The notes beneath the pieces were generated by a model. It was not told where the DNA came from. It did not search any database and saw only the letters and a list, made by a program, of their open reading frames with translations. The position numbers and the translations under genes are program-made. Source: a virus. From it: 20,854 nt of DNA. The stretch lies in UHGV virus genome UHGV-0059920. The stretch is one strand, 5' to 3'. Below, one piece after another: positions 2,775 through 17,500 of the stretch (its first letter is position 1; each line of letters opens with the position of its first letter).

Positions 2775-3349
2775 ACCGGGCCTCCGGTTGTATCGCCGCC
2801 TTTCAGGACGCCAGTATGCTGATGCGCATCAACCACGATCCCGTTAGAACTCATCGCTCCGCCGCCCTGGGTAACGCCACCATTGATCACCACTTCGCTG
2901 TTAATGCGCGTGCGGTCAGCCTCCAGTACAAACTCACTGGTTTTCATGGTGATGTTGTCAGCGGCCTCAATGACCATTGATTTGATGCCCCTGACATACC
3001 AGCGCCCGGTGGCGGGTTCATATTCAAACCAGCCACCGTCAGGATGTTCTGTCACGCAGGCGTCCGCCGACGTCGACGGTGGTGCGAACTGATTCGAATA
3101 GACAGCGGGCAGCGCAAAGGCAGTCTCCAGATTGCCGCCCAGACTCAGCAGCACCACCTGCTCACCTTCTGATGGTTTCCACCATGTGCGGGCATTACCC
3201 GCGCGCAGCGTCAGCCAGTTAATCCAGTTAGTTTCAAGGTCGCCCGTTTTCACCCGGCAAAGCCAGTTTGTCCTGTCCACTTCGGTGACTACCCCAGTGC
3301 GGATCAGGTTGGTGATAAGGCGCATGATTTCGGTTAATTGTGCGTTCAT
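2771..3349 (-). CDS. V: Baseplate spike/hub protein V
   Basis: 192-aa ORF (MNAQLTEIMRLITNLIRTG...) resembling the P2 gpV N-terminus; first gene of the V-W-J-I-H block. Confidence 0.85.
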   Translation of the reverse strand: MNAQLTEIMRLITNLIRTGVVTEVDRTNWLCRVKTGDLETNWINWLTLRAGNARTWWKPSEGEQVVLLSLGGNLETAFALPAVYSNQFAPPSTSADACVTEHPDGGWFEYEPATGRWYVRGIKSMVIEAADNITMKTSEFVLEADRTRINSEVVINGGVTQGGGAMSSNGIVVDAHQHTGVLKGGDTTGGPV

Positions 3350-5700: not shown

Positions 5701-5896
5701 AGTCCTCCCGCGAGATCTGCCCGTCGCGCAGGAGCTGGTAGGCTTTGTGTTTGTAGTACCAGTTGATAGCCAGCATCAGCACACCAATCATCAGGCCGCC
5801 CAGCGTTGAGGCATCCTTGATGGACAAATCGCCCAGCCAGGCCAGCACAACGGCGATGCAGTACGTGATAAAGGCGCTGATTCGCTCAAGCGTCAT
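5681..5896 (-). CDS. Y: Holin, class II with two transmembrane segments (possible pinholin)
   Basis: 71 aa, two hydrophobic helices and a charged C-terminus, directly upstream of the endolysin. Confidence 0.75.
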   Translation of the reverse strand: MTLERISAFITYCIAVVLAWLGDLSIKDASTLGGLMIGVLMLAINWYYKHKAYQLLRDGQISREDYESINR

Positions 5897-6662: not shown

Positions 6663-7313
6663 TCAGCGGCTGTCATTGCGCAGTCTGCGCTCCAGCTGCT
6701 GTTTGTCTTTTTTCACGCCACAGCGGGGATCAAGCTGTAACGCATGGTTGAGATGATTAAGGGCGGAAGCCGGATTGCTTTCACTCAGGACAGCGCCAAT
6801 CGCTTTATGCAGACGCGCCCGTGACTGGTCCGGCATATCCAGACCGTCTGTCAGCTCCAGCGTCTGCAACAACAGATCGGCATCAAAGCCGGTGGCGGCA
6901 AGCATTGCGCTCTGCGCGGCGTCTGCCATTTCCTCTGCCAGCACGGTCTGCACGTTGCGGTTACCCAGCGGCATCACCCAGCCATGACGCAGGGCATGAC
7001 GCCCGATCTCCAGCGCCCCGGCATAATCTCCGGCATCAATGCGCCACAGCATCACGTACATCAGCACGTCATCCTGTTGAGCGCCTCCGGCAGCCAGGAC
7101 ACCCTCTGCCCAGGCGGCGTACTTCGGCAGCAGCTCCACCTTGATTTCCGCTTTTTTGACCGTGGACTGAACGCCCTTGAGACGGCGGCGGTCTTCCGCC
7201 AGTTGCAGCAGCATCAGGTCATAGCCCGATGCGTGGCGAACACTGCCGCCCTCGCGGGCGGCCTGTTCAGCCTGAACGCGCAGGCGATGCTGCCGTGCGG
7301 GACTCAGGCTCAT
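6663..7313 (-). CDS. M: Terminase endonuclease (small) subunit M
   Basis: 216 aa, directly downstream of capsid gene N as in P2. Confidence 0.85.
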   Translation of the reverse strand: MSLSPARQHRLRVQAEQAAREGGSVRHASGYDLMLLQLAEDRRRLKGVQSTVKKAEIKVELLPKYAAWAEGVLAAGGAQQDDVLMYVMLWRIDAGDYAGALEIGRHALRHGWVMPLGNRNVQTVLAEEMADAAQSAMLAATGFDADLLLQTLELTDGLDMPDQSRARLHKAIGAVLSESNPASALNHLNHALQLDPRCGVKKDKQQLERRLRNDSR

Positions 7314-9367: not shown

Positions 9368-11134
9368 ATGAACACCACACTGACACCCGCAGATCTCGAT
9401 CCCCGTCGGCAGGCCATGCTGCTGTACTTTCAGGGATACCGCGTAGCCCGCATTGCTGAAATGCTGGGCGAGAAAGTTGCAACCGTTCACAGCTGGAAAA
9501 AACGCGACAAGTGGGGTGACTATGGGCCTCTGGATCAGATGCAGCTCACCACCGCCGCACGCTACTGCCAGCTCATCATGAAGGAGCACAAAGAAGGGAA
9601 AGATTTCAAAGAGATTGACCTGCTGGCGCGCCAGTCTGAGCGCCACGCGCGGATCGGCAAGTTTAACAATGGCGGCAACGAAGCCGACTTAAACCCTAAC
9701 GTCGCCAACCGCAACAAAGGCCCACGCCGTCAGCCTGAAAAGAATGTTTTCACCGATGACCAGATTGAGAAGCTGGAAGAAATTTTCCATTCCTCCATGT
9801 TCAACTACCAGCGCCACTGGTGGGAAGCCGGAAAAACCAACCGCATCCGCAACCTGCTGAAGTCACGCCAGATCGGCGCGACCTTCTATTTTGCCCGTGA
9901 AGCCCTGATTGACGCCCTGCTTACCGGACGTAACCAGATTTTCCTTTCTGCCAGTAAGGCACAGGCCCACGTCTTCAAACAGTACATCATCGACTTTGCC
10001 AAAGAAGTGGAGGTGGAGCTGAAAGGCGATCCGATGGTGCTTCCCAACGGGGCCACACTGTATTTCCTCGGCACCAATGCCCGCACTGCCCAGAGTTATC
10101 ACGGCAACCTGTATCTGGATGAATATTTCTGGATACCGAAATTCCAGGAGCTGCGCAAAGTGGCTTCCGGTATGGCTATTCACAAGAAATGGCGACAGAC
10201 CTATTTTTCCACGCCATCCAGCCTGACCCACAGTGCTTATCCGTTCTGGTCCGGTGCGCTGTTCAACCGTGGGCGCAACAAAGCCGATAAGGTGGACATC
10301 GACCTGTCCCACAGCAATCTGGCTCCCGGCCTGCTGTGTGCAGACGGGCAATACCGCCAGATAGTCACCGTGGAAGATGCGGTGCGCGGCGGATGTAACC
10401 TGTTCGATCTCGACCAGTTGCGCATGGAGTACAGCCCGGACGAATACCAGAACCTGCTGATGTGCGAGTTCGTGGACGATCTCGCGTCCGTGTTCCCGCT
10501 CAGCGAACTGCAGGCGTGCATGGTGGACAGCTGGGAAGTCTGGACCGACTTTCATGCACTGGCCCTGCGCCCGTTTGGCTGGCGCGAAGTGTGGATCGGT
10601 TATGACCCGGCAAAAGGTACGCAGAACGGCGACAGTGCCGGATGCGTGGTGGTGGCTCCGCCAGCCGTGCCGGGTGGTAAGTTCCGCATTCTTGAGCGTC
10701 ACCAGTGGCGCGGGATGGACTTCCGCGCCCAGGCTGACGCCATCAAAAAACTGACCGAACAGTATAACGTGACCTATATCGGTATCGACTCGACCGGCGT
10801 CGGTCACGGGGTTTACGAGAACGTGAAAGCGTTTTTTCCTGCCGTCAGGGAGTTTGTCTATAACCCCAACGTTAAAAACGCCCTGGTACTCAAGGCCTAC
10901 GACATTATCAGCCACCGCCGTCTGGAGTTTGACGCCGGGCACACCGACATTGCGCAGTCATTTATGGCAATCCGTCGCGCTACCACTGCCAGTGGCAACC
11001 GCCCGACCTATGAAGCCAGCCGCAGCGAAGAAGCCAGCCATGCCGATCTGGCCTGGGCAACAATGCACGCACTGTTTAACGAACCACTGCAGGGCGAGTC
11101 CGCCAATACCAGCAATATTGTGGAGATTTTTTGA
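9368..11134 (+). CDS. P: Terminase ATPase (large) subunit P
   Basis: 588-aa ORF divergent from O; its stop overlaps the Q start (tgATG). Confidence 0.9.
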   Translation: MNTTLTPADLDPRRQAMLLYFQGYRVARIAEMLGEKVATVHSWKKRDKWGDYGPLDQMQLTTAARYCQLIMKEHKEGKDFKEIDLLARQSERHARIGKFNNGGNEADLNPNVANRNKGPRRQPEKNVFTDDQIEKLEEIFHSSMFNYQRHWWEAGKTNRIRNLLKSRQIGATFYFAREALIDALLTGRNQIFLSASKAQAHVFKQYIIDFAKEVEVELKGDPMVLPNGATLYFLGTNARTAQSYHGNLYLDEYFWIPKFQELRKVASGMAIHKKWRQTYFSTPSSLTHSAYPFWSGALFNRGRNKADKVDIDLSHSNLAPGLLCADGQYRQIVTVEDAVRGGCNLFDLDQLRMEYSPDEYQNLLMCEFVDDLASVFPLSELQACMVDSWEVWTDFHALALRPFGWREVWIGYDPAKGTQNGDSAGCVVVAPPAVPGGKFRILERHQWRGMDFRAQADAIKKLTEQYNVTYIGIDSTGVGHGVYENVKAFFPAVREFVYNPNVKNALVLKAYDIISHRRLEFDAGHTDIAQSFMAIRRATTASGNRPTYEASRSEEASHADLAWATMHALFNEPLQGESANTSNIVEIF

Positions 11135-12159
11135 TGGGAAAGAGTAAGAAGAACCGCGCTGCGTCGACGAAACAGATCCAGCATAAAGGCCAGACTTCAG
11201 CCGAAGCATTCAGCTTCGGTGATCCCGTTCCTGTTCTGGACCGCCGCGAACTGCTGGACTATGTGGAATGCGTACAGATGGATCGTTGGTATGAGCCGCC
11301 TGTGAGTTTCGACGGACTGGCGCGAACTTTCCGCGCCGCCGTGCATCACAGCTCACCGATTGCAGTGAAGTGCAACATTCTGACCAGCACCTACATCCCT
11401 CACCCGCTGCTCAGCCAGCAGGCTTTTTCGCGTTTTGTACAGGACTATCTGGTTTTTGGTAACGCCTACCTGGAGAAACGCACGAACCGTTTCGGTGAAG
11501 TTATCGCCCTTGAGCCTGCTCTGGCAAAATACACCCGACGCGGGTTAGACCTGGATACCTACTGGTTTGTGCAATACGGTATGACAACCCAGCCGTATCA
11601 GTTCACGAAAGGCAGCATTTTTCATCTGATGGAACCGGACATCAACCAGGAGATCTACGGCCTGCCAGGTTATCTTTCTGCCATTCCGTCAGCCCTGCTC
11701 AACGAGTCCGCCACGCTGTTCCGCCGTAAGTATTACATTAACGGCAGTCATGCAGGCTTCATCATGTACATGACCGATGCCGCGCAGAACCAGGAGGACG
11801 TGAACAACCTTCGCAATGCGATGAAAAGTGCCAAAGGACCAGGTAACTTCCGCAATCTGTTCATGTACTCGCCTAACGGCAAAAAGGACGGGCTTCAGAT
11901 CATCCCGTTGTCAGAAGTCGCGGCGAAGGATGAGTTTCTGAATATCAAAAATGTCAGCCGCGATGACATGATGGCTGCGCACCGTGTACCGCCACAAATG
12001 ATGGGAATCATGCCGAGTAATGTTGGGGGATTTGGTGATGTTGAAAAAGCCAGCCGCGTCTTTGTCCGCAACGAACTGATGACGTTACAGAAGCGACTGC
12101 AGGAGCTTAACGACTGGCTGGGCGAAGAAATAATTCGCTTCGAACCTTATATGTTTTAG
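11134..12159 (+). CDS. Q: Portal (capsid vertex) protein Q
   Basis: Start refined to ATG at 11134 with GGAG upstream (the ORF-track start at 11131 is a TTG); about 341 aa downstream of P. Confidence 0.9.
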   Translation: MGKSKKNRAASTKQIQHKGQTSAEAFSFGDPVPVLDRRELLDYVECVQMDRWYEPPVSFDGLARTFRAAVHHSSPIAVKCNILTSTYIPHPLLSQQAFSRFVQDYLVFGNAYLEKRTNRFGEVIALEPALAKYTRRGLDLDTYWFVQYGMTTQPYQFTKGSIFHLMEPDINQEIYGLPGYLSAIPSALLNESATLFRRKYYINGSHAGFIMYMTDAAQNQEDVNNLRNAMKSAKGPGNFRNLFMYSPNGKKDGLQIIPLSEVAAKDEFLNIKNVSRDDMMAAHRVPPQMMGIMPSNVGGFGDVEKASRVFVRNELMTLQKRLQELNDWLGEEIIRFEPYMF

Positions 12160-12176: not shown

Positions 12177-12202
12177 AAAGCGCCTGCTACTGCAGGCGCT
12201 TT
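12177..12202. terminator. Bidirectional rho-independent terminator between convergent Q and the 97-aa ORF
   Basis: AAAGCGCCTGC-tact-GCAGGCGCTTT: an 8-bp GC-rich stem flanked by an A-tract and a T-tract, 18 nt after the Q stop. Confidence 0.6.
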
Positions 12203-12204
12203 GT

Positions 12205-12498
12205 TTACTCTTTAACAAGTGTGCCCCACACCGAGTCTTCAACCTCTTCAACAACAATATTGATGTTGCAAATAACATGGTCTTCACTTACTCGAGTATA
12301 TCTGAATAACCTTGATTTCACTTTCCCACCAAACGACTCACGGTCTTCATTGTTGGTAATGTCGACATAATCCCCAACATTCGGAAGCATCAGGAGTGGA
12401 TTGTCTTCCGAAGAACATCTTACAATCTCTCCATCATCAAGAGGTCGCGTATCCCCTTTACGTAAGTATTGAAAGTCATAGTTGTATATGGTTTTCAT
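12205..12498 (-). CDS. Hypothetical 97-aa acidic protein; AT-rich cargo gene between portal gene and cos
   Basis: Single ATG start with AAGGA 8 nt upstream, terminator immediately downstream, visibly AT-rich codon usage unlike the flanking phage genes. No motif recognised. Confidence 0.55.
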   Translation of the reverse strand: MKTIYNYDFQYLRKGDTRPLDDGEIVRCSSEDNPLLMLPNVGDYVDITNNEDRESFGGKVKSRLFRYTRVSEDHVICNINIVVEEVEDSVWGTLVKE

Positions 12499-12677
12499 TG
12501 TCTATCCTTTTGAAAGTAACATCGCTGACGTATGTTGTTTCACAGTTCCATTTCCACATTAAGTCAATGAAATCAACATCATTTAATGTGTGCCAATATA
12601 TTGCAACACGATCCCGAAAACTTCAAATCAATCTCTCCAATACGCGGGATTATTACTTTTTCGCCCCGTTACGCGCG

Positions 12678-12696
12678 CTCGTATCCCCGCCACGCC
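12678..12696. other. Putative cos site (cohesive-end region)
   Basis: Minus strand reads GGCGTGGCGGGGATACGAG. I recall the P2/P4 cohesive end as GGCGAGGCGGGGAAAGCAC and a near-identical one for 186. It lies on the far side of Q from P, where cos sits in P2. Confidence 0.5.
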
Positions 12697-12740
12697 TGCC
12701 CGCTTTGTGTAGTGGTTTTCATGCACCTGCATGACACAAG

Positions 12741-12770
12741 CAAAAGCCCGCCAGCTCTGGCGGGCATCAG
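12741..12770 (-). terminator. Rho-independent terminator, minus-strand orientation
   Basis: GCCCGCCAG-ctc-TGGCGGGC stem followed on the minus strand by TTTTGCTTG; sits after the HNH gene and before cos. Confidence 0.5.
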
Positions 12771-12878
12771 CAAAAACGATCCTCAAACGATCATGCGATT
12801 TCATGCGGCATAGACATGCGTTGGCAAAAATGTACGAAATACTCAGCTTATAGGAAATGGTCTTTTTCCAACCTCCAG

Positions 12879-13598
12879 TTAGCCAAAGCAGAAACCAATA
12901 TTGCAATTTGAAACTCCACAGTTGTGAAATTGATGTGGACCTACTCTTAGCTTGTGTTCGTCTCCTACAATCCGAGTCCCCTTAACCAACATATCTAATC
13001 TTTCCACAATCAATCTTTCAGGCGCATCAACTTTAATAATTAAACGAGGACCTTTCCTTTTTTCTATAATAGTTATTCTAGGACCGACAACCTGAACATC
13101 CCAATGCCTTGCACTACAAACCCACTCATTCTTAATTAATTCAAGATTAACAATACCTTGACTATCGTAAAATTTACCCGAAATAAGAAAAGCATTATTT
13201 TCTTTTTCAATGGTTAACAATGGCTCATTTTGAAACATTATTGGTACAGTACAGGATTCAAACGTCGCACCACCAAATATTATTGTTGGATGCCTATCAG
13301 AAAAGTCCAATATATCGGCCACATTCCCTTTTTGTAAGGCTGCAGGAGATTCCATTGCTTTAATTATTTTCTCTTTAGAGTAAAGACGTTTCGTTACTTT
13401 CGCATGGCACGTAGGACAAAGTAGTGCTATTGCATTTGGAGAGTGCTCCTTTGCATCAGCGTATGTGGGAATTACATGCTCATACTCAACAATGGGAGAA
13501 GCACAAACAACGCAACCGAAGCCACAGCGCTGCCTTACCTCCAGTTTTACAGGTTCAGGAATTGTTCTAGATAACCCATGCTTGTTAATAGTTGTCAT
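12879..13598 (-). CDS. HNH (His-Me finger) nuclease-domain protein with an unrecognised C-terminal domain of about 170 aa; candidate defence or exclusion cargo
   Basis: N-terminal motif RCGFGCVVC...EYEHVIP...SPNAIALLCPTCHAK has the spacing of a zinc-bound HNH core (CxxC, EH, N, CxxCH). AAGGTAAGG RBS upstream; visibly AT-rich. It sits where P2 carries old/tin. Confidence 0.7.
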   Translation of the reverse strand: MTTINKHGLSRTIPEPVKLEVRQRCGFGCVVCASPIVEYEHVIPTYADAKEHSPNAIALLCPTCHAKVTKRLYSKEKIIKAMESPAALQKGNVADILDFSDRHPTIIFGGATFESCTVPIMFQNEPLLTIEKENNAFLISGKFYDSQGIVNLELIKNEWVCSARHWDVQVVGPRITIIEKRKGPRLIIKVDAPERLIVERLDMLVKGTRIVGDEHKLRVGPHQFHNCGVSNCNIGFCFG

Positions 13599-13720: not shown

Positions 13721-13954
13721 TTAATGCAGCCAGCTGTCGTCTTCCCACACCTTCTGCATAATTTTCATCACTTGCTTCCTTTCTTCGTCCAGTTGCAGTC
13801 CGGTCAGTTCCACACCGTTAGAGCTACCTTTGCGGATGCGAATTACCGTTTTTGGATACAGGGGGCGCAGATTGCGGTAAAGCTCGGATTCAAGGGCGTC
13901 CAGGGTAGACTGGCTAATCTTCTGCTCTTTATCGATCATTATTTCAATGCGCAT
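13721..13954 (-). CDS. DinI-like protein (candidate Tum-like SOS antirepressor domain)
   Basis: Start refined to ATG at 13954 with GAGGTG upstream. MRIEIMIDK...LDALESEL...KIMQKVWEDDSW aligns by eye with E. coli DinI as recalled (MRIEVTIAK...IDALAGEL...WESADDW). Confidence 0.8.
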   Translation of the reverse strand: MRIEIMIDKEQKISQSTLDALESELYRNLRPLYPKTVIRIRKGSSNGVELTGLQLDEERKQVMKIMQKVWEDDSWLH

Positions 13955-13964
13955 AAAAGTCACC

Positions 13965-14153
13965 TCAGCTGATGACATCCATTGAGCGGTTGTATTCGTG
14001 GGTTCTGATTTTTGCCATGAGTTCATCTGTCAGTTCAGAAACCCACTGCAAAGCCAGCCCCTTCTCTTCATCACTACACTCACTAGCCGCTACAAGTTTA
14101 AGAAAAAAATCAATGCGCTGGAGCTTCAAAGACTCCAAAAAATAGTCCTGCAT
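13965..14153 (-). CDS. Small hypothetical protein (62 aa), first gene after the LexA box
   Basis: ATG at 14153 preceded by AGGAGGAAAG. Ends 10 nt before the DinI-like start, in a different frame. Confidence 0.5.
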   Translation of the reverse strand: MQDYFLESLKLQRIDFFLKLVAASECSDEEKGLALQWVSELTDELMAKIRTHEYNRSMDVIS

Positions 14154-14306: not shown

Positions 14307-16679
14307 TTAATACAGGTTTCGCCACTTATCATCTTCCTGCAAACGCTGGTTCCGATAGAAGATACGCAGGCCTGCTCCTGACGGAATACTGCCGCCGCGA
14401 AGGAGTAAATCGACCTCTTTCTCGCTGCCATCAAATCCTCTGGACTTCAGTTCATAGACGAGCTGCTGTCGCTGATGGTCTGTAATTCGCTGTTTGTAGT
14501 CTTTACGCCGTTTCGGTTTCACCAGGCGTAACCTTGCAGCTAGTTCCCGGCGCTCTTTTTTGCTCATACTGTGCAGGTAATCGTGCAACGCCTTGTCATC
14601 CATGCGGGTAATGTCCGTCCTGGTATCCCCATCAGCTGATTTGTCTTTCCCTTGTTGGTTCAAATTTTCAGCAAGGGGACAGTTATTGCCACGAGTCCAA
14701 GGGGCGCAAGCGCCCTGGTCGGCTGCCGCCTCCTGAACATCAACGGCCTTACGAACCATTTTCCACTTCACGGCATGAGTGCAGATCTTGCCCTCTGCAA
14801 TAGGTGACCAGATGCCATAAATACGAATGCCGTGATCGCCATAGGCGGTCGGCTCTTCGTTGATTTCATAAGCGGTTCTGATGAGGTGATATTTGCGGGG
14901 AACCAGTACGCCGCCCTGCTTCATGATGTAGGTGGCAAAACAACCAGCATCAGCAGCAGCCAGGATGGCATCAAGGCGCGGGTTATCCAGTACCGGCGCA
15001 CCTGCTTTTTTGTCCCCCTGTTGCCTTGCCGCCTGACCAGCCAGCAATCGCAGTTCACGGTAAGCCTGACGCCCCGGAATGCCAAAGAAGCGGAATTGCT
15101 GAACACGATGCAGAGACGCCCAGGCATTAACGTATTCAGCATTATCACGCAGGGATTTCCCCGTTTCCTTGCTGATCTCGCCAGCCAGACCACGCCCGTC
15201 AATGTTCTTACTGATGTATTTCGCGATGTAGCTTGTTGGCGTACCTTTGCGCGGGTTAATCAACTCAGACTTAAAGCGCGGCCCAGTGTTATTGCCCAGT
15301 TCCTCGCGGTCTTCACGGATGGCAAACTTACGCAGTAATGCAGTGATGGCGCGGCGGTCTTTTTTGCGCATAAAACACAACAGGTGCCAGTGAACTGTAC
15401 CGTCATGATGCGGCTCAGCCACCCGCACGCCATACCACCGCAATCCGGCTTTGTGCATCGCCTTACGAAATGCAGCAAACATGCCGACCAGATAATCACT
15501 GCTTTGTCTTACCGTCGCATTTGTCCAAGTTGGGTTGGGCCTGCCATTATTTAGCGTGGAATGGAAACGTGACGGACAGGTGATGGTGTAGAAAACGGCG
15601 CAGTCACCGCGCATTTCCGCGATAAGCTCCAGGCCTTTAACACAGGCCATCATCTCATTGCGGCGATGCGCAGGGTTGCTGCTGCTGGCGTTTACCACAT
15701 CCTCCATGTCCAGCGTGTCGCCGTCTTCGTTCACCAGTTCATGAGAACGAAAAAACTCCAGCGACTTACGGCGCTGCTCACGTTTATGCATCACGGCTTC
15801 ATAGCTGACATAGGGAGATGCTTTTTTGCTGACCAGGCAGACAGCACGCAACTGCTCTTCCCGCCATTCGCAACGCATCTTCCATAATTTCCGGTACCAC
15901 CAGTCAGCGCACAACATACGCGCCAGCGAACCCGGAATGAGTTCATAGGGCACGGGTTTACGGCGGTTTCTTTTCCGGCGGAGTTGCTCAAACGCAGGCG
16001 GGATGACATCCAGACGCAGGGTTTCCGCTGCCACCTTTTCCCATGTCTTGCGGATTTCTTCTGGCTTAACGTCATCGGTGACATACAAATCGCCACAAGC
16101 TGCATCAAGGCACATGCTCATATGCGCAGCTACCAGGGTGGACAGGCGTTTCACCTGATCCTGACTCATTTCAGGCAGGATCAGCAGGCCGTCCAGCCCT
16201 TCATGGCTTGCCATAAAGCGAAAAGAAGTGGATAGCTGACAGTCGCGTACATGCTCCAGCCGTTCCAGACATGGCTTAATCGTCTCACGCAAATAGCGGG
16301 AATAAGCCTTTGGCCTGCCCAGGCTGCTGAAGTATTCAATACGTTGCATCAGTGGCTTGCTGATATGGGAAGGCTGGGCATTAACGTCCGCCAGAATGAC
16401 CATATCTGGATTAAAACGCTGCTGCTCATGCGCCAGCTTTGCCCGACTAATGAGCTTATCCTGCTCCATTTCGCGCTGGACAGGATCACGGGATTCATTA
16501 AAGAAATAACGCTCCCAGACCTGATCACTCAGTGCCTCGCGGCGCAGCTGTTCCTGCTCGTTATCGGCAGCGTACAGAGCGATCAGGTTTGAAAGCGCAG
16601 AAACTGAAGATTGCTCTTCCGTCTCTACGTAAGGATTGATTGCTTTTTTCTCAGCATTCCAGGAATAGCTGTAGTTCAT
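14307..16679 (-). CDS. A: Replication initiator endonuclease A (rolling-circle nickase)
   Basis: About 790 aa with HxH metal motif ([11 protein letters not shown]) and the active-site tyrosine region ([12 protein letters not shown]). Start taken as ATG at 16679, overlapping the upstream stop (TAATG); the ORF-track start at 16730 is a TTG. Confidence 0.9.
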
Positions 16680-17500
16680 TACGCAATCTCCAGTTCGAGC
16701 TGTGAAGGCTGCAAACCATTCGACAGCCAATCAGAAACTGAAGGTGGGCGAACAGCTTCAATTGCACCTTTTAAAATTGCGCAACGGTTTTTCAGAATGA
16801 CAGCTTTCAGCTCCTTTTCCGTCAGATTGCGCGAATACTCAGCCTCCTGAATAGCCCGCGTCAGCTCAGGATATTTGCTATTAAATTTGGGGACATTGCA
16901 GGCAAGATTTGTACTGTCGGCAGTCGCCAGTGGGTAATTTCCCAACACACGACCGTCAAGCATGCGCAAACCATGAACAGCTGTTTTGAAATTGTGTCGG
17001 CAATAAATTGCTTCAAAAGCGTCCTGCATACGACGATGCCAGTGCGCAGTTCTGATAGCCGCATATTCACCAGACGATCCAAAGCAGACACGAGGCCATT
17101 CACGACATAGCTCGATAAGCCGATCGATTGACTCGTGCAGATGCCAGACGGGAGTTGCCTTCCCGTAGAACATTTTCGGAACTTCGTTTATCAGGGCATC
17201 ATTGTCACGTTCACCTCCGTCCACAACATCAGGAATGACAAAAAAAGCGACCTTAGGATGGTGGTAATAGTTCAGGAGCCATTTATAAAAATCACTCCAG
17301 TTAATTTTTAGCCCACGCACCCATGCAGAAAATGCGCCGTTATCAATGCCGACGACCTGAGCGTGCTGAATGGACGCCGCAATCTGATCTGGTCGTACAT
17401 AGGAGACGAAAGCGCCAGCTCCGCTCACCGCAATACGATGAACGTCGCCAGCACTTCCCCAGACAGGCGTCCCATGGAAATGATGAATTCCGTGGTGCAT
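16679..17500 (-). CDS. Hypothetical protein of about 273 aa, translationally coupled between dam and A
   Basis: ATG at 17500, 5 nt after the Dam stop; its own stop overlaps the A start. No motif I can assign by eye. Confidence 0.6.

Follow-up and report, generated by a model that had tools for sequence, protein, structure and literature searches.

A predicted P2-family cos site between two AT-rich cargo genes in a Fels-2-type Klebsiella prophage

We analyzed a 20,854-nt stretch of viral DNA, UHGV virus genome UHGV-0059920 (hereafter the window). Klebsiella phage records such as KP12 match 84% of its length at 96% identity. Positions 12499–12878 form the exact intergenic space between two minus-strand open reading frames (ORFs), and inside this space lies a 148-bp segment that we read as the cohesive end site (cos) at which a P2-family phage would cut its DNA for packaging. 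A sequence-only reading of the same DNA had proposed a cos-like site here, set between two AT-rich cargo genes and guarded by a terminator. The feature itself is already known: the sequence has been published, homologous sites have been annotated, and the hotspot of variable genes around it has been described.

Read along the minus strand, the locus consists of gpA, a DinI-family gene, an HNH cargo gene, cos, a second cargo gene (ORF97), and then the portal and large terminase genes in reverse orientation. Beyond the large terminase lie the scaffold, capsid, small terminase (gpM), and gpL genes. This gene order around the site is that of P2, with cos between a non-essential region on the gpA side and the divergent portal-terminase (Q-P) operon, and the packaging module is complete, with full-length terminase, portal, capsid, and scaffold genes that have strong family matches. 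The portal protein (11131–12159, plus strand) is a gpQ homologue with a Pfam Phage_portal match and is 84–98% identical to those of Fels-2-type loci. The large terminase (9368–11134, plus strand) is a gpP homologue and the predicted cos-nicking enzyme, with matches to Pfam Terminase_6N, Terminase_6C, and Terminase_5. The small terminase (6663–7313, minus strand) is a gpM homologue and the predicted cos-recognition subunit; it matches Pfam Phage_term_smal (E = 2e-40) and phrog_74, which is the terminase small subunit. By these profile matches, one and the same element encodes a gpM/gpP-type terminase and a gpQ portal. The N-terminus of the large terminase (9368–9570) holds the Terminase_5 (gpP-like) helix-turn-helix domain, with weak similarity to Sigma70_r4_2 and HTH_23, so the large subunit itself could contribute to the recognition of the cos sequence. 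On the other side of the site, the replication protein gpA (14307–16730, minus strand; Pfam Phage_GPA, E = 1e-127) anchors the hotspot at its right-end side. The DinI-family gene (13721–14026, minus strand; Pfam DinI, E = 1.3e-22) lies between gpA and the cargo, and the same gpA-dinI-cargo arrangement is found in Fels-2, SEN8, and MLG42.

The predicted 19-nt 5′ cohesive end, GGCGTGGCGGGGATACGAG (12678–12696, minus strand), was called from a direct read and from homology to known cos sites, and the letters from 12696 to 12678 are exactly those that had been claimed. We described the family context as AAAACC-N7-RAAG-N-GGGC-N-GGCG-N-GGCGGGGA. This pattern matched the window only once, at 12719–12684 on the minus strand, with 0 mismatches. 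The proposal was to be dropped if the match proved no better than background, and this did not apply: none of 100 dinucleotide-preserving shuffles matched the pattern, even with 3 mismatches permitted.

An alignment with the cos regions of P2, 186, and P4 had also been called for. We rebuilt circular junctions from the annotated cohesive ends of P2 (GGCGAGGCGGGGAAAGCAC), 186 and PSP3 (GGCGTGGCGGGGAAAGCAT), and P4, and the window aligned with these annotated junctions almost without gaps. In the resulting alignment (A1), the window, Fels-2, SEN8, 186, P2, and P4 are almost ungapped over ~185 bp and share 56 invariant columns, including GGCG-GGCGGGGA, GGGC, AAG, AAAACC, the TGCAT boxes, and GCGCG. 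The window keeps every column that is invariant across P2, 186, P4, Fels-2, and SEN8. Its cohesive end has the P2-family form, GGCGNGGCGGGGA plus 6 further bases, and the site as a whole fits the ~55-bp P2-family core (TGCATnAAAACC...AAGnGGGCn, then the end, then YGCGCG). Given this alignment and its syntenic position, the site is homologous to the annotated cos of P2, 186, and P4.

Two further claims concerned likeness to P2. The bases 3′ of the 19-mer were said to go on resembling the P2/P4 left end; this holds for 6–7 nt, where CGCGCG matches P4 (CGCGCGC) and nearly matches P2 and 186 (TGCGCGC), and fails beyond, where the sequences diverge. The cos was also said to differ from P2 at several positions, and indeed only 12 of its 19 end bases are identical to P2 and P4, with 13 of 19 shared with 186 and PSP3. 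These differences form a common lineage variant that had been published before and is not specific to this prophage.

Salmonella phage SEN8 provides a published precedent. A full-text search with the sequence turned up its Genome Announcement, which prints “cos site (ggcgtggcggggatacgag),” the same 19-mer (PMC5427200), and in its record, KT630647.2, an identical 19-mer at bases 1–19 is annotated as “putative cos site.” That record was opened exactly at the nick predicted here, and the BLAST match of the window's right arm ends at the record's last base. In Escherichia phage Cartapus, a homologous 59 bp is annotated as “putative cos site, homologous to the cos of P2 phage.” Yersinia phage vB_YpM_MLG42 (source, rural dog anal swab; host, Y. 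pestis EV76-CN) matches the 148-bp core at 96.6% identity and SEN8 matches it at 91.9%; several deposited phage records match it at 93–97%.

In order to bound the conserved module, we compared the window with 51 unique IMG/VR relatives anchored on the 19-mer, using ungapped identity and counting offsets from the first base of the cohesive end. Identity was ~25% (the random level) outside 12672–12819 and 75–100% inside it. The edges, at −123 and +24, are abrupt, and unrelated cargo starts directly on both sides. The module (12672–12819, minus strand) therefore consists of a 123-bp right arm, the 19-nt end, and CGCGC(G), and BLAST matches in 56 phage records span at least 80% of exactly this interval. 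On the left-end side of the bottom-strand nick, the only conserved sequence is CGCGCG (12672–12677, minus strand). Conservation there is 96–100% at +20 to +24 and falls to 8% after that; GCGCG is invariant in all six members of A1. Just left of the module, the minus strand at 12643–12671 reads AACGGGGCGAAAAAGTAATAATCCCGCG, with a diverged form, AACGGGGTGAAATGGTnAAAATCCGGCG, in some relatives. This segment is common to a subset that includes MLG42, L052, L067, and L120, so the conserved left flank is ~30 bp longer in that sub-lineage.

The right arm has a layered structure. Abutting the top-strand nick is its proximal part, AAAACC-N7-AAAG-N-GGGCA (12697–12719, minus strand), in which AAAACC occupies 12719–12714 and AAAACC, AAG, and GGGC are A1 invariants. 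Next to it lies an inverted ATGCA/TGCAT pair, CATGCAGGTGCATG (12720–12733, minus strand), with the pair itself, ATGCAGGTGCAT, at 12732–12721; it contains the fourth GCAT box, at offset −28. At the distal edge of the module are three direct GCATG boxes (12792–12819, minus strand), at 12819–12815, 12806–12802, and 12796–12792, spaced by 13 and 10 bp and invariant or nearly so in A1. The first of them coincides with the distal edge of conservation. We surveyed 255 unique right arms, of which 85 are Fels-2-type, 99 are P2/186/P4-type, and 71 belong to a diverged satellite type. Against a background of 0.03, GCAT was found at −123, −110, and −100 in 64–94% of arms in all three groups and at −28 in 98–100% of arms whatever the cos type. 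We infer that the GCAT boxes form a terminase recognition array.

Another element is confined to one lineage. Two GATC (Dam) sites lie 11 bp apart in GATCGTTTGAGGATC (12778–12792, minus strand; sites at 12792–12789 and 12781–12778). GATC occurs at −96 and −85 in 81–82% of Fels-2-type arms. In the P2/186/P4-type and satellite-type groups, no offset has it in as many as 50% of arms. The arrangement recalls the Dam-regulated pac site of P1, and the pair might tie the use of this cos to the state of Dam methylation.

The GC-rich hairpin and T-tract reported between the HNH gene and the site were located at 12765–12742 on the minus strand, as GCCCGCCA-GAGC-TGGCGGGC followed by TTTT. The hairpin proper, GCCCGCCAGAGCTGGCGGGC (12765–12746), has 8 pairs (7 of them GC), a loop of 4, and the tail TTTTGCTTGT. 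On the minus strand it was scored as terminator-like, and within 65 nt of context its folding energy is −25.3 kcal/mol (z = −2.7). It lies 114 nt past the stop codon of the HNH gene, on the same strand, and thus has what is expected of an intrinsic terminator: a GC stem-loop, a T-run, and a position downstream of a gene. Across 93 unique Fels-2-type arms, the stem was conserved among 21 loop variants, and 83 arms had at least 3 T in the 6-nt tail. A stem of at least 6 pairs together with a T-run was present in 52% of Fels-2-type arms vs 0–1% in the other types. Double changes in the stem are few, and most of its conservation is in the sequence itself, so covariation is neutral. The kept stem, free loop, and T-run give an intrinsic-terminator signature, and the element most likely ends transcription arriving from the gpA, dinI, and cargo side before it enters cos. 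To describe it as a terminator guarding cos is reasonable but provisional.

Alternatively, the hairpin could serve chiefly in cos structure or in protein binding, for instance of terminase or a host DNA-bending factor, and the T-tract would then be incidental. We consider this unlikely, though it is the alternative that deserves the most weight. The hairpin sits within the sharply conserved module and not with the cargo gene, and the GCAT-box-to-nick distance is constant in a way that suggests a constrained nucleoprotein complex. The same palindrome core (CCAG-N2-4-YYGG), without a T-tract, is found at this offset in 44–61% of 186-like and AGAGCAT-type arms, so the hairpin may be a cos element as well as a terminator; P4 has a different GC hairpin at the equivalent place. 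However, P2 proper and most AAAGCAC arms do without such an element (1% have it), and yet the P2 cos is functional. The free loop and the T-run of most Fels-2-type arms also speak for termination, as does the orientation of the hairpin, which suits stopping transcription from gpA, dinI, and the cargo gene.

Homology, synteny, and published annotation all support the proposal that this is the packaging cut site. Considering this evidence together, we put the probability at roughly 0.93 that 12672–12819 works as the cos of a P2-family (Fels-2-type, Peduoviridae) Klebsiella prophage that appears intact. Three observations weigh against this assignment. The cos annotations in SEN8 and Cartapus are themselves only putative and were made by analogy. 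The window departs from the family majority at a few non-invariant positions (e.g. −70, −59, and +25), so a reduced cos function is possible. Finally, P2 lacks the hairpin, and in 186 and P4 no T-tract follows it, so the family does not generally require it.

The rare substitutions, at −70, −59, −41, and +25, would also fit a decayed cos, homologous to the others and no longer cut, in a defective prophage; only 20.9 kb of the element is visible, and the prophage as a whole may not be intact. We regard such decay as very improbable, given that all columns invariant across the reference phages are intact, that the core closely matches deposited phage records, and that the terminase, portal, capsid, and scaffold genes are full-length. 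We reject a chance GC-rich match unrelated to packaging as next to impossible: the 18-mer does occur in unrelated phyla (Acidobacteriota, Gemmatimonadota, and others) without flanking context, in roughly a dozen hits that by our own estimate approximate the chance expectation in 596 Gb, but here 148 bp of conserved family context surround the 19-mer, which lies at the syntenic position, and the module conservation, A1, and the shuffles all exclude coincidence.

For a functional cos, we propose the following course of events, in which we infer the nick positions, the protein that reads each element, and the activity of the terminator. By analogy with P2 and 186 and from general knowledge of cos phages, gpM and gpP would bind the right arm on circular replicated DNA. 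Recognition would most likely occur through the 123-bp arm, with its GCAT boxes at −123, −110, −100, and −28 and the AAAACC...GGGCA segment, and left of the nick only ~5 bp (CGCGC) would be needed. The gpP subunit would then nick 5′ of 12696 on the minus strand and after 12678 on the plus strand, 19 bp apart. On parting, the strands would leave 19-nt 5′-protruding GGCGTGGCGGGGATACGAG ends, and a unit-length genome would be packaged. After injection, the ends would anneal and then be ligated. The cargo genes would become the terminal genes of the linear virion DNA.

Both cargo genes are AT-rich, as had been noted, with GC contents of 0.38 (HNH gene) and 0.40 (ORF97) vs 0.57 for the cos core and 0.52 for the window. 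The gene on the right-end side (12879–13598, minus strand) encodes a 239-aa HNH-domain protein (Pfam HNH, E = 2.4e-5, exceeding the Pfam gathering score; phrog_6544, E = 2.5e-111), whose best PADLOC match is marginal (mREase_IV, E = 0.0095). On the left-end side, ORF97 (12205–12498, minus strand) encodes 97 aa and is read away from cos. It belongs to phrog_12676, a family of unknown function, and has no Pfam or PADLOC match; a consensus promoter scan of the interval from cos to the gene gave no minus-strand hit. Among the related loci compared, only one (L121) has the HNH gene, and only two have homologues of ORF97, at 68% identity. The prediction that the two genes end up at opposite ends of the virion DNA follows from the placement of cos between them: after the cut, the HNH gene would be rightmost and the 97-aa gene leftmost. 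P2 old and SEN8_1 and SEN8_49 of SEN8 are likewise terminal in virion DNA.

This setting corresponds to a cos-adjacent hotspot of variable accessory and defense genes between gpA and gpQ (Rousset et al. 2022, PMC9122126), which also appears in a 2026 follow-up (PMC13586616). In the P2 record, old and tin sit at the cos-adjacent position. The turnover expected of a hotspot is visible here, with identity at the random level just outside 12672–12819 and cargo that is rare among relatives. At the far side of ORF97, between its stop and that of the portal gene, an A-tract, hairpin, and T-tract (AAAGCGCCTGC-TACT-GCAGGCGCTTT, 12177–12202) lie between these converging genes (portal on the plus strand, ORF97 on the minus strand) and are thus a probable bidirectional terminator. 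P2 tQ and 186 tW are annotated at the equivalent place.

We also compared cohesive-end variants with the packaging genes beside them. In 47 IMG/VR and GTDB loci, the ATACGAG end of the window stood beside a large terminase with at least 90% identity to that of the window, and the terminases accompanying P2/186-type ends were 55–75% identical to the latter. The end type followed the packaging genes in all 88 loci that showed both a packaging gene and gpA. Eight of the 88 (including L383, L390, L431, L437, L444, and L446) are natural recombinants: their gpA is Fels-2-like (at least 69% identical), but their packaging genes are P2/186-like and their end is AGAGCAT. Across the cos hotspot, the replication module can thus be exchanged independently of the packaging module, and the end type goes with the terminase. 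One recombinant, L431 (IMGVR_UViG_3300011944_000012), has a chimeric cos, with the recombination junction inside the module. Its distal arm is Fels-2-like, with the GATC pair and the hairpin and T-tract, and its proximal 25 bp and end are 186-like (AGAGCAT); its portal is 65% and its gpA 83% identical to those of the window. If cos and terminase do form specificity classes, a possibility taken up below, this chimera would place the determinants between about −24 and +24 around the nick and would make the distal GCAT-box arm exchangeable between classes.

The differences from P2 had been thought possibly relevant to compatibility between satellites and phages. We collected cos sites beside Psu homologues, from 75 IMG/VR and 72 metagenome loci, and in these 147 sites of Psu-type P4-like satellites the ATACGAG end was never found; they carry AAAGCAC or AGAGCAT and minor variants. 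AGAGCAT is also present in 20 P2-like phages of the P2/186 terminase class. Within the loci L277–L356 and L357–L464, the diverged Psu-type P4-like satellites have GGCGTGGCGGGGAGAGCAT as their dominant end, and GGCGGGGCGGGGAGAGCAT is a second satellite variant. Fetching IMG/VR loci with GGCGTGGCGGGGAGAGCAT gave 108, of which 84 were P4-like and 20 P2-like. The proximal arm of the diverged satellites has AAAAGC, not AAAACC.

This distribution fits the compatibility idea as a correlation only. A stronger version is that the Fels-2-type cos (...ATACGAG|C and the proximal arm) and its terminase form a packaging-specificity class apart from the P2/186 class (...A[A/G/T]AGCA[C/T]|T), one that Psu-type satellites do not exploit. 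We find this doubtful. If it were true, Psu-type P4-like satellites with only P2/186-class ends would not be packageable by such phages, and a joint switch of cos and terminase would amount to the escape of a helper lineage from satellite parasitism. Our literature search found no published data on Fels-2-type phages as P4 helpers. We also rejected the notion that ATACGAG is strictly exclusive to one terminase clade. The same 19-mer occurs in Chitinimonas and Pasteurella testudinis prophages beside distant large terminases (65% and 56% identical, respectively), which makes the variant old and widespread rather than a recent escape. The end of Stenotrophomonas phage Smp131 is ...AGACGAG.

A search for the exact 18-mer in species-representative genomes gave 65 hits, and the enterobacterial ones with visible neighbors are P2-like prophages. 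A few loci are without P2 genes: Rosenbergiella L230, L236 from a “Chloroflexia” metagenome-assembled genome (MAG), Pantoea L218, and several from Chitinimonas. L230 (Rosenbergiella australiborealis, 3303–3320) has the family right-arm context and lies beside lptF and lptG, with DUF943 and DUF1493 nearby. L236 (“uncultured Chloroflexia” MAG, 5841–5858) also has this context, with AbiEii and T5orf172 genes around it; its contig is probably enterobacterial DNA that was binned wrongly. Neither 8-kb locus contains P2-like or P4-like genes, and Pfam scans of the two found no satellite hallmark, only host (LptF/LptG) or defense-type (AbiEii, T5orf172) genes. Of two betaproteobacterial genomes, that of Chitinimonas sp. 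BJB300 has five copies of the 19-mer followed by CGCGCGC (L214, L215, L221, L223, and L250), and that of C. taiwanensis has three (L227, L253, and L268), each with a TGCAGGTGCAT box. L223 is the only Chitinimonas copy beside a P2-like terminase and portal (65% and 71% identical). A P4-like integrase (51%) is ~3.6 kb away from L268, and in L215 and L250 a gpA-like ORF (30%) is located downstream of cos. The Chitinimonas copies could be several cos-bearing, satellite-like elements that share one helper.

Locating cos fixes the ends of the virion genome and identifies the AT-rich genes as terminal cargo in a documented hotspot. This helps prophage annotation and is not a discovery. The analysis adds the GATC pair and hairpin as features specific to the Fels-2 lineage. 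Its side results are the sharp limits of the 148-bp module, four GCAT boxes whose offsets hold across the P2, 186, P4, and Fels-2 types, and an end variant that tracks the terminase clade and is absent from the sampled P4-like satellites. These side results matter only if experimentally confirmed. They would then provide a map for Klebsiella cos cosmids or transducing particles and a test of whether cos/terminase specificity limits the satellites that a P2-like helper mobilizes.

Among known systems, the window is nearest to Fels-2, SEN8, and other Felsduovirus and Elveevirus members (Peduoviridae). They share the identical 19-mer, a module that is 88–97% identical, the placement of cos between gpA/dinI/cargo and cargo/portal, the GATC pair, and the hairpin and T-tract. 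Only the flanking cargo genes and a few non-invariant bases differ, and the cos sites of these relatives are themselves putative. Compared with the hotspot of Rousset et al., the window likewise has short, variable, AT-rich cassettes between gpA and gpQ that directly abut cos, but neither of its cargo genes has a confident match to a known defense family.

P2 and P4 share with the window the family signature, the fixed-offset GCAT boxes, a long conserved right arm vs YGCGCG alone on the left, and accessory genes beside cos (old and tin in P2, a defense hotspot in P4). They differ from it in the 7 end bases outside the 12 of 19 that are identical and in the hairpin, which P2 does not have and which is of another kind in P4. 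According to papers citing Ziermann and Calendar (1990), the P2/P4 cos has 19-nt 5′ ends and a conserved region of ~55 bp (PMC9594776, PMC3931495), and longer cos flanks raise transduction >1000-fold. Coliphages 186 and PSP3 agree with the window in the opening 13 nt of the end (GGCGTGGCGGGGA), in the proximal arm TCATGCAnnTGCATnAAAACC...AAAGnGGGCA, in the three distal TGCAT boxes and their offsets, and in the CGCCAGAGCTGGCG core of the palindrome. Unlike the window, 186 ends in AAGCAT|T instead of TACGAG|C (the last six end bases and the next base), and it has no T-tract after the palindrome, no GATC pair, and no cargo between cos and portal. Relatives with 186-type ends have large terminases ~62–65% identical to the window's. 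Lambda cos (cosN, cosB, and cosQ) offers a functional analogy only. In both systems, a staggered terminase nick produces 5′ cohesive ends and repeated recognition elements lie next to it, but the two sequences are unrelated and the lambda overhang is 12 nt vs 19 nt here. The cosB array of lambda is on the side packaged first, whereas the conserved arm of the window is on the right-end side.

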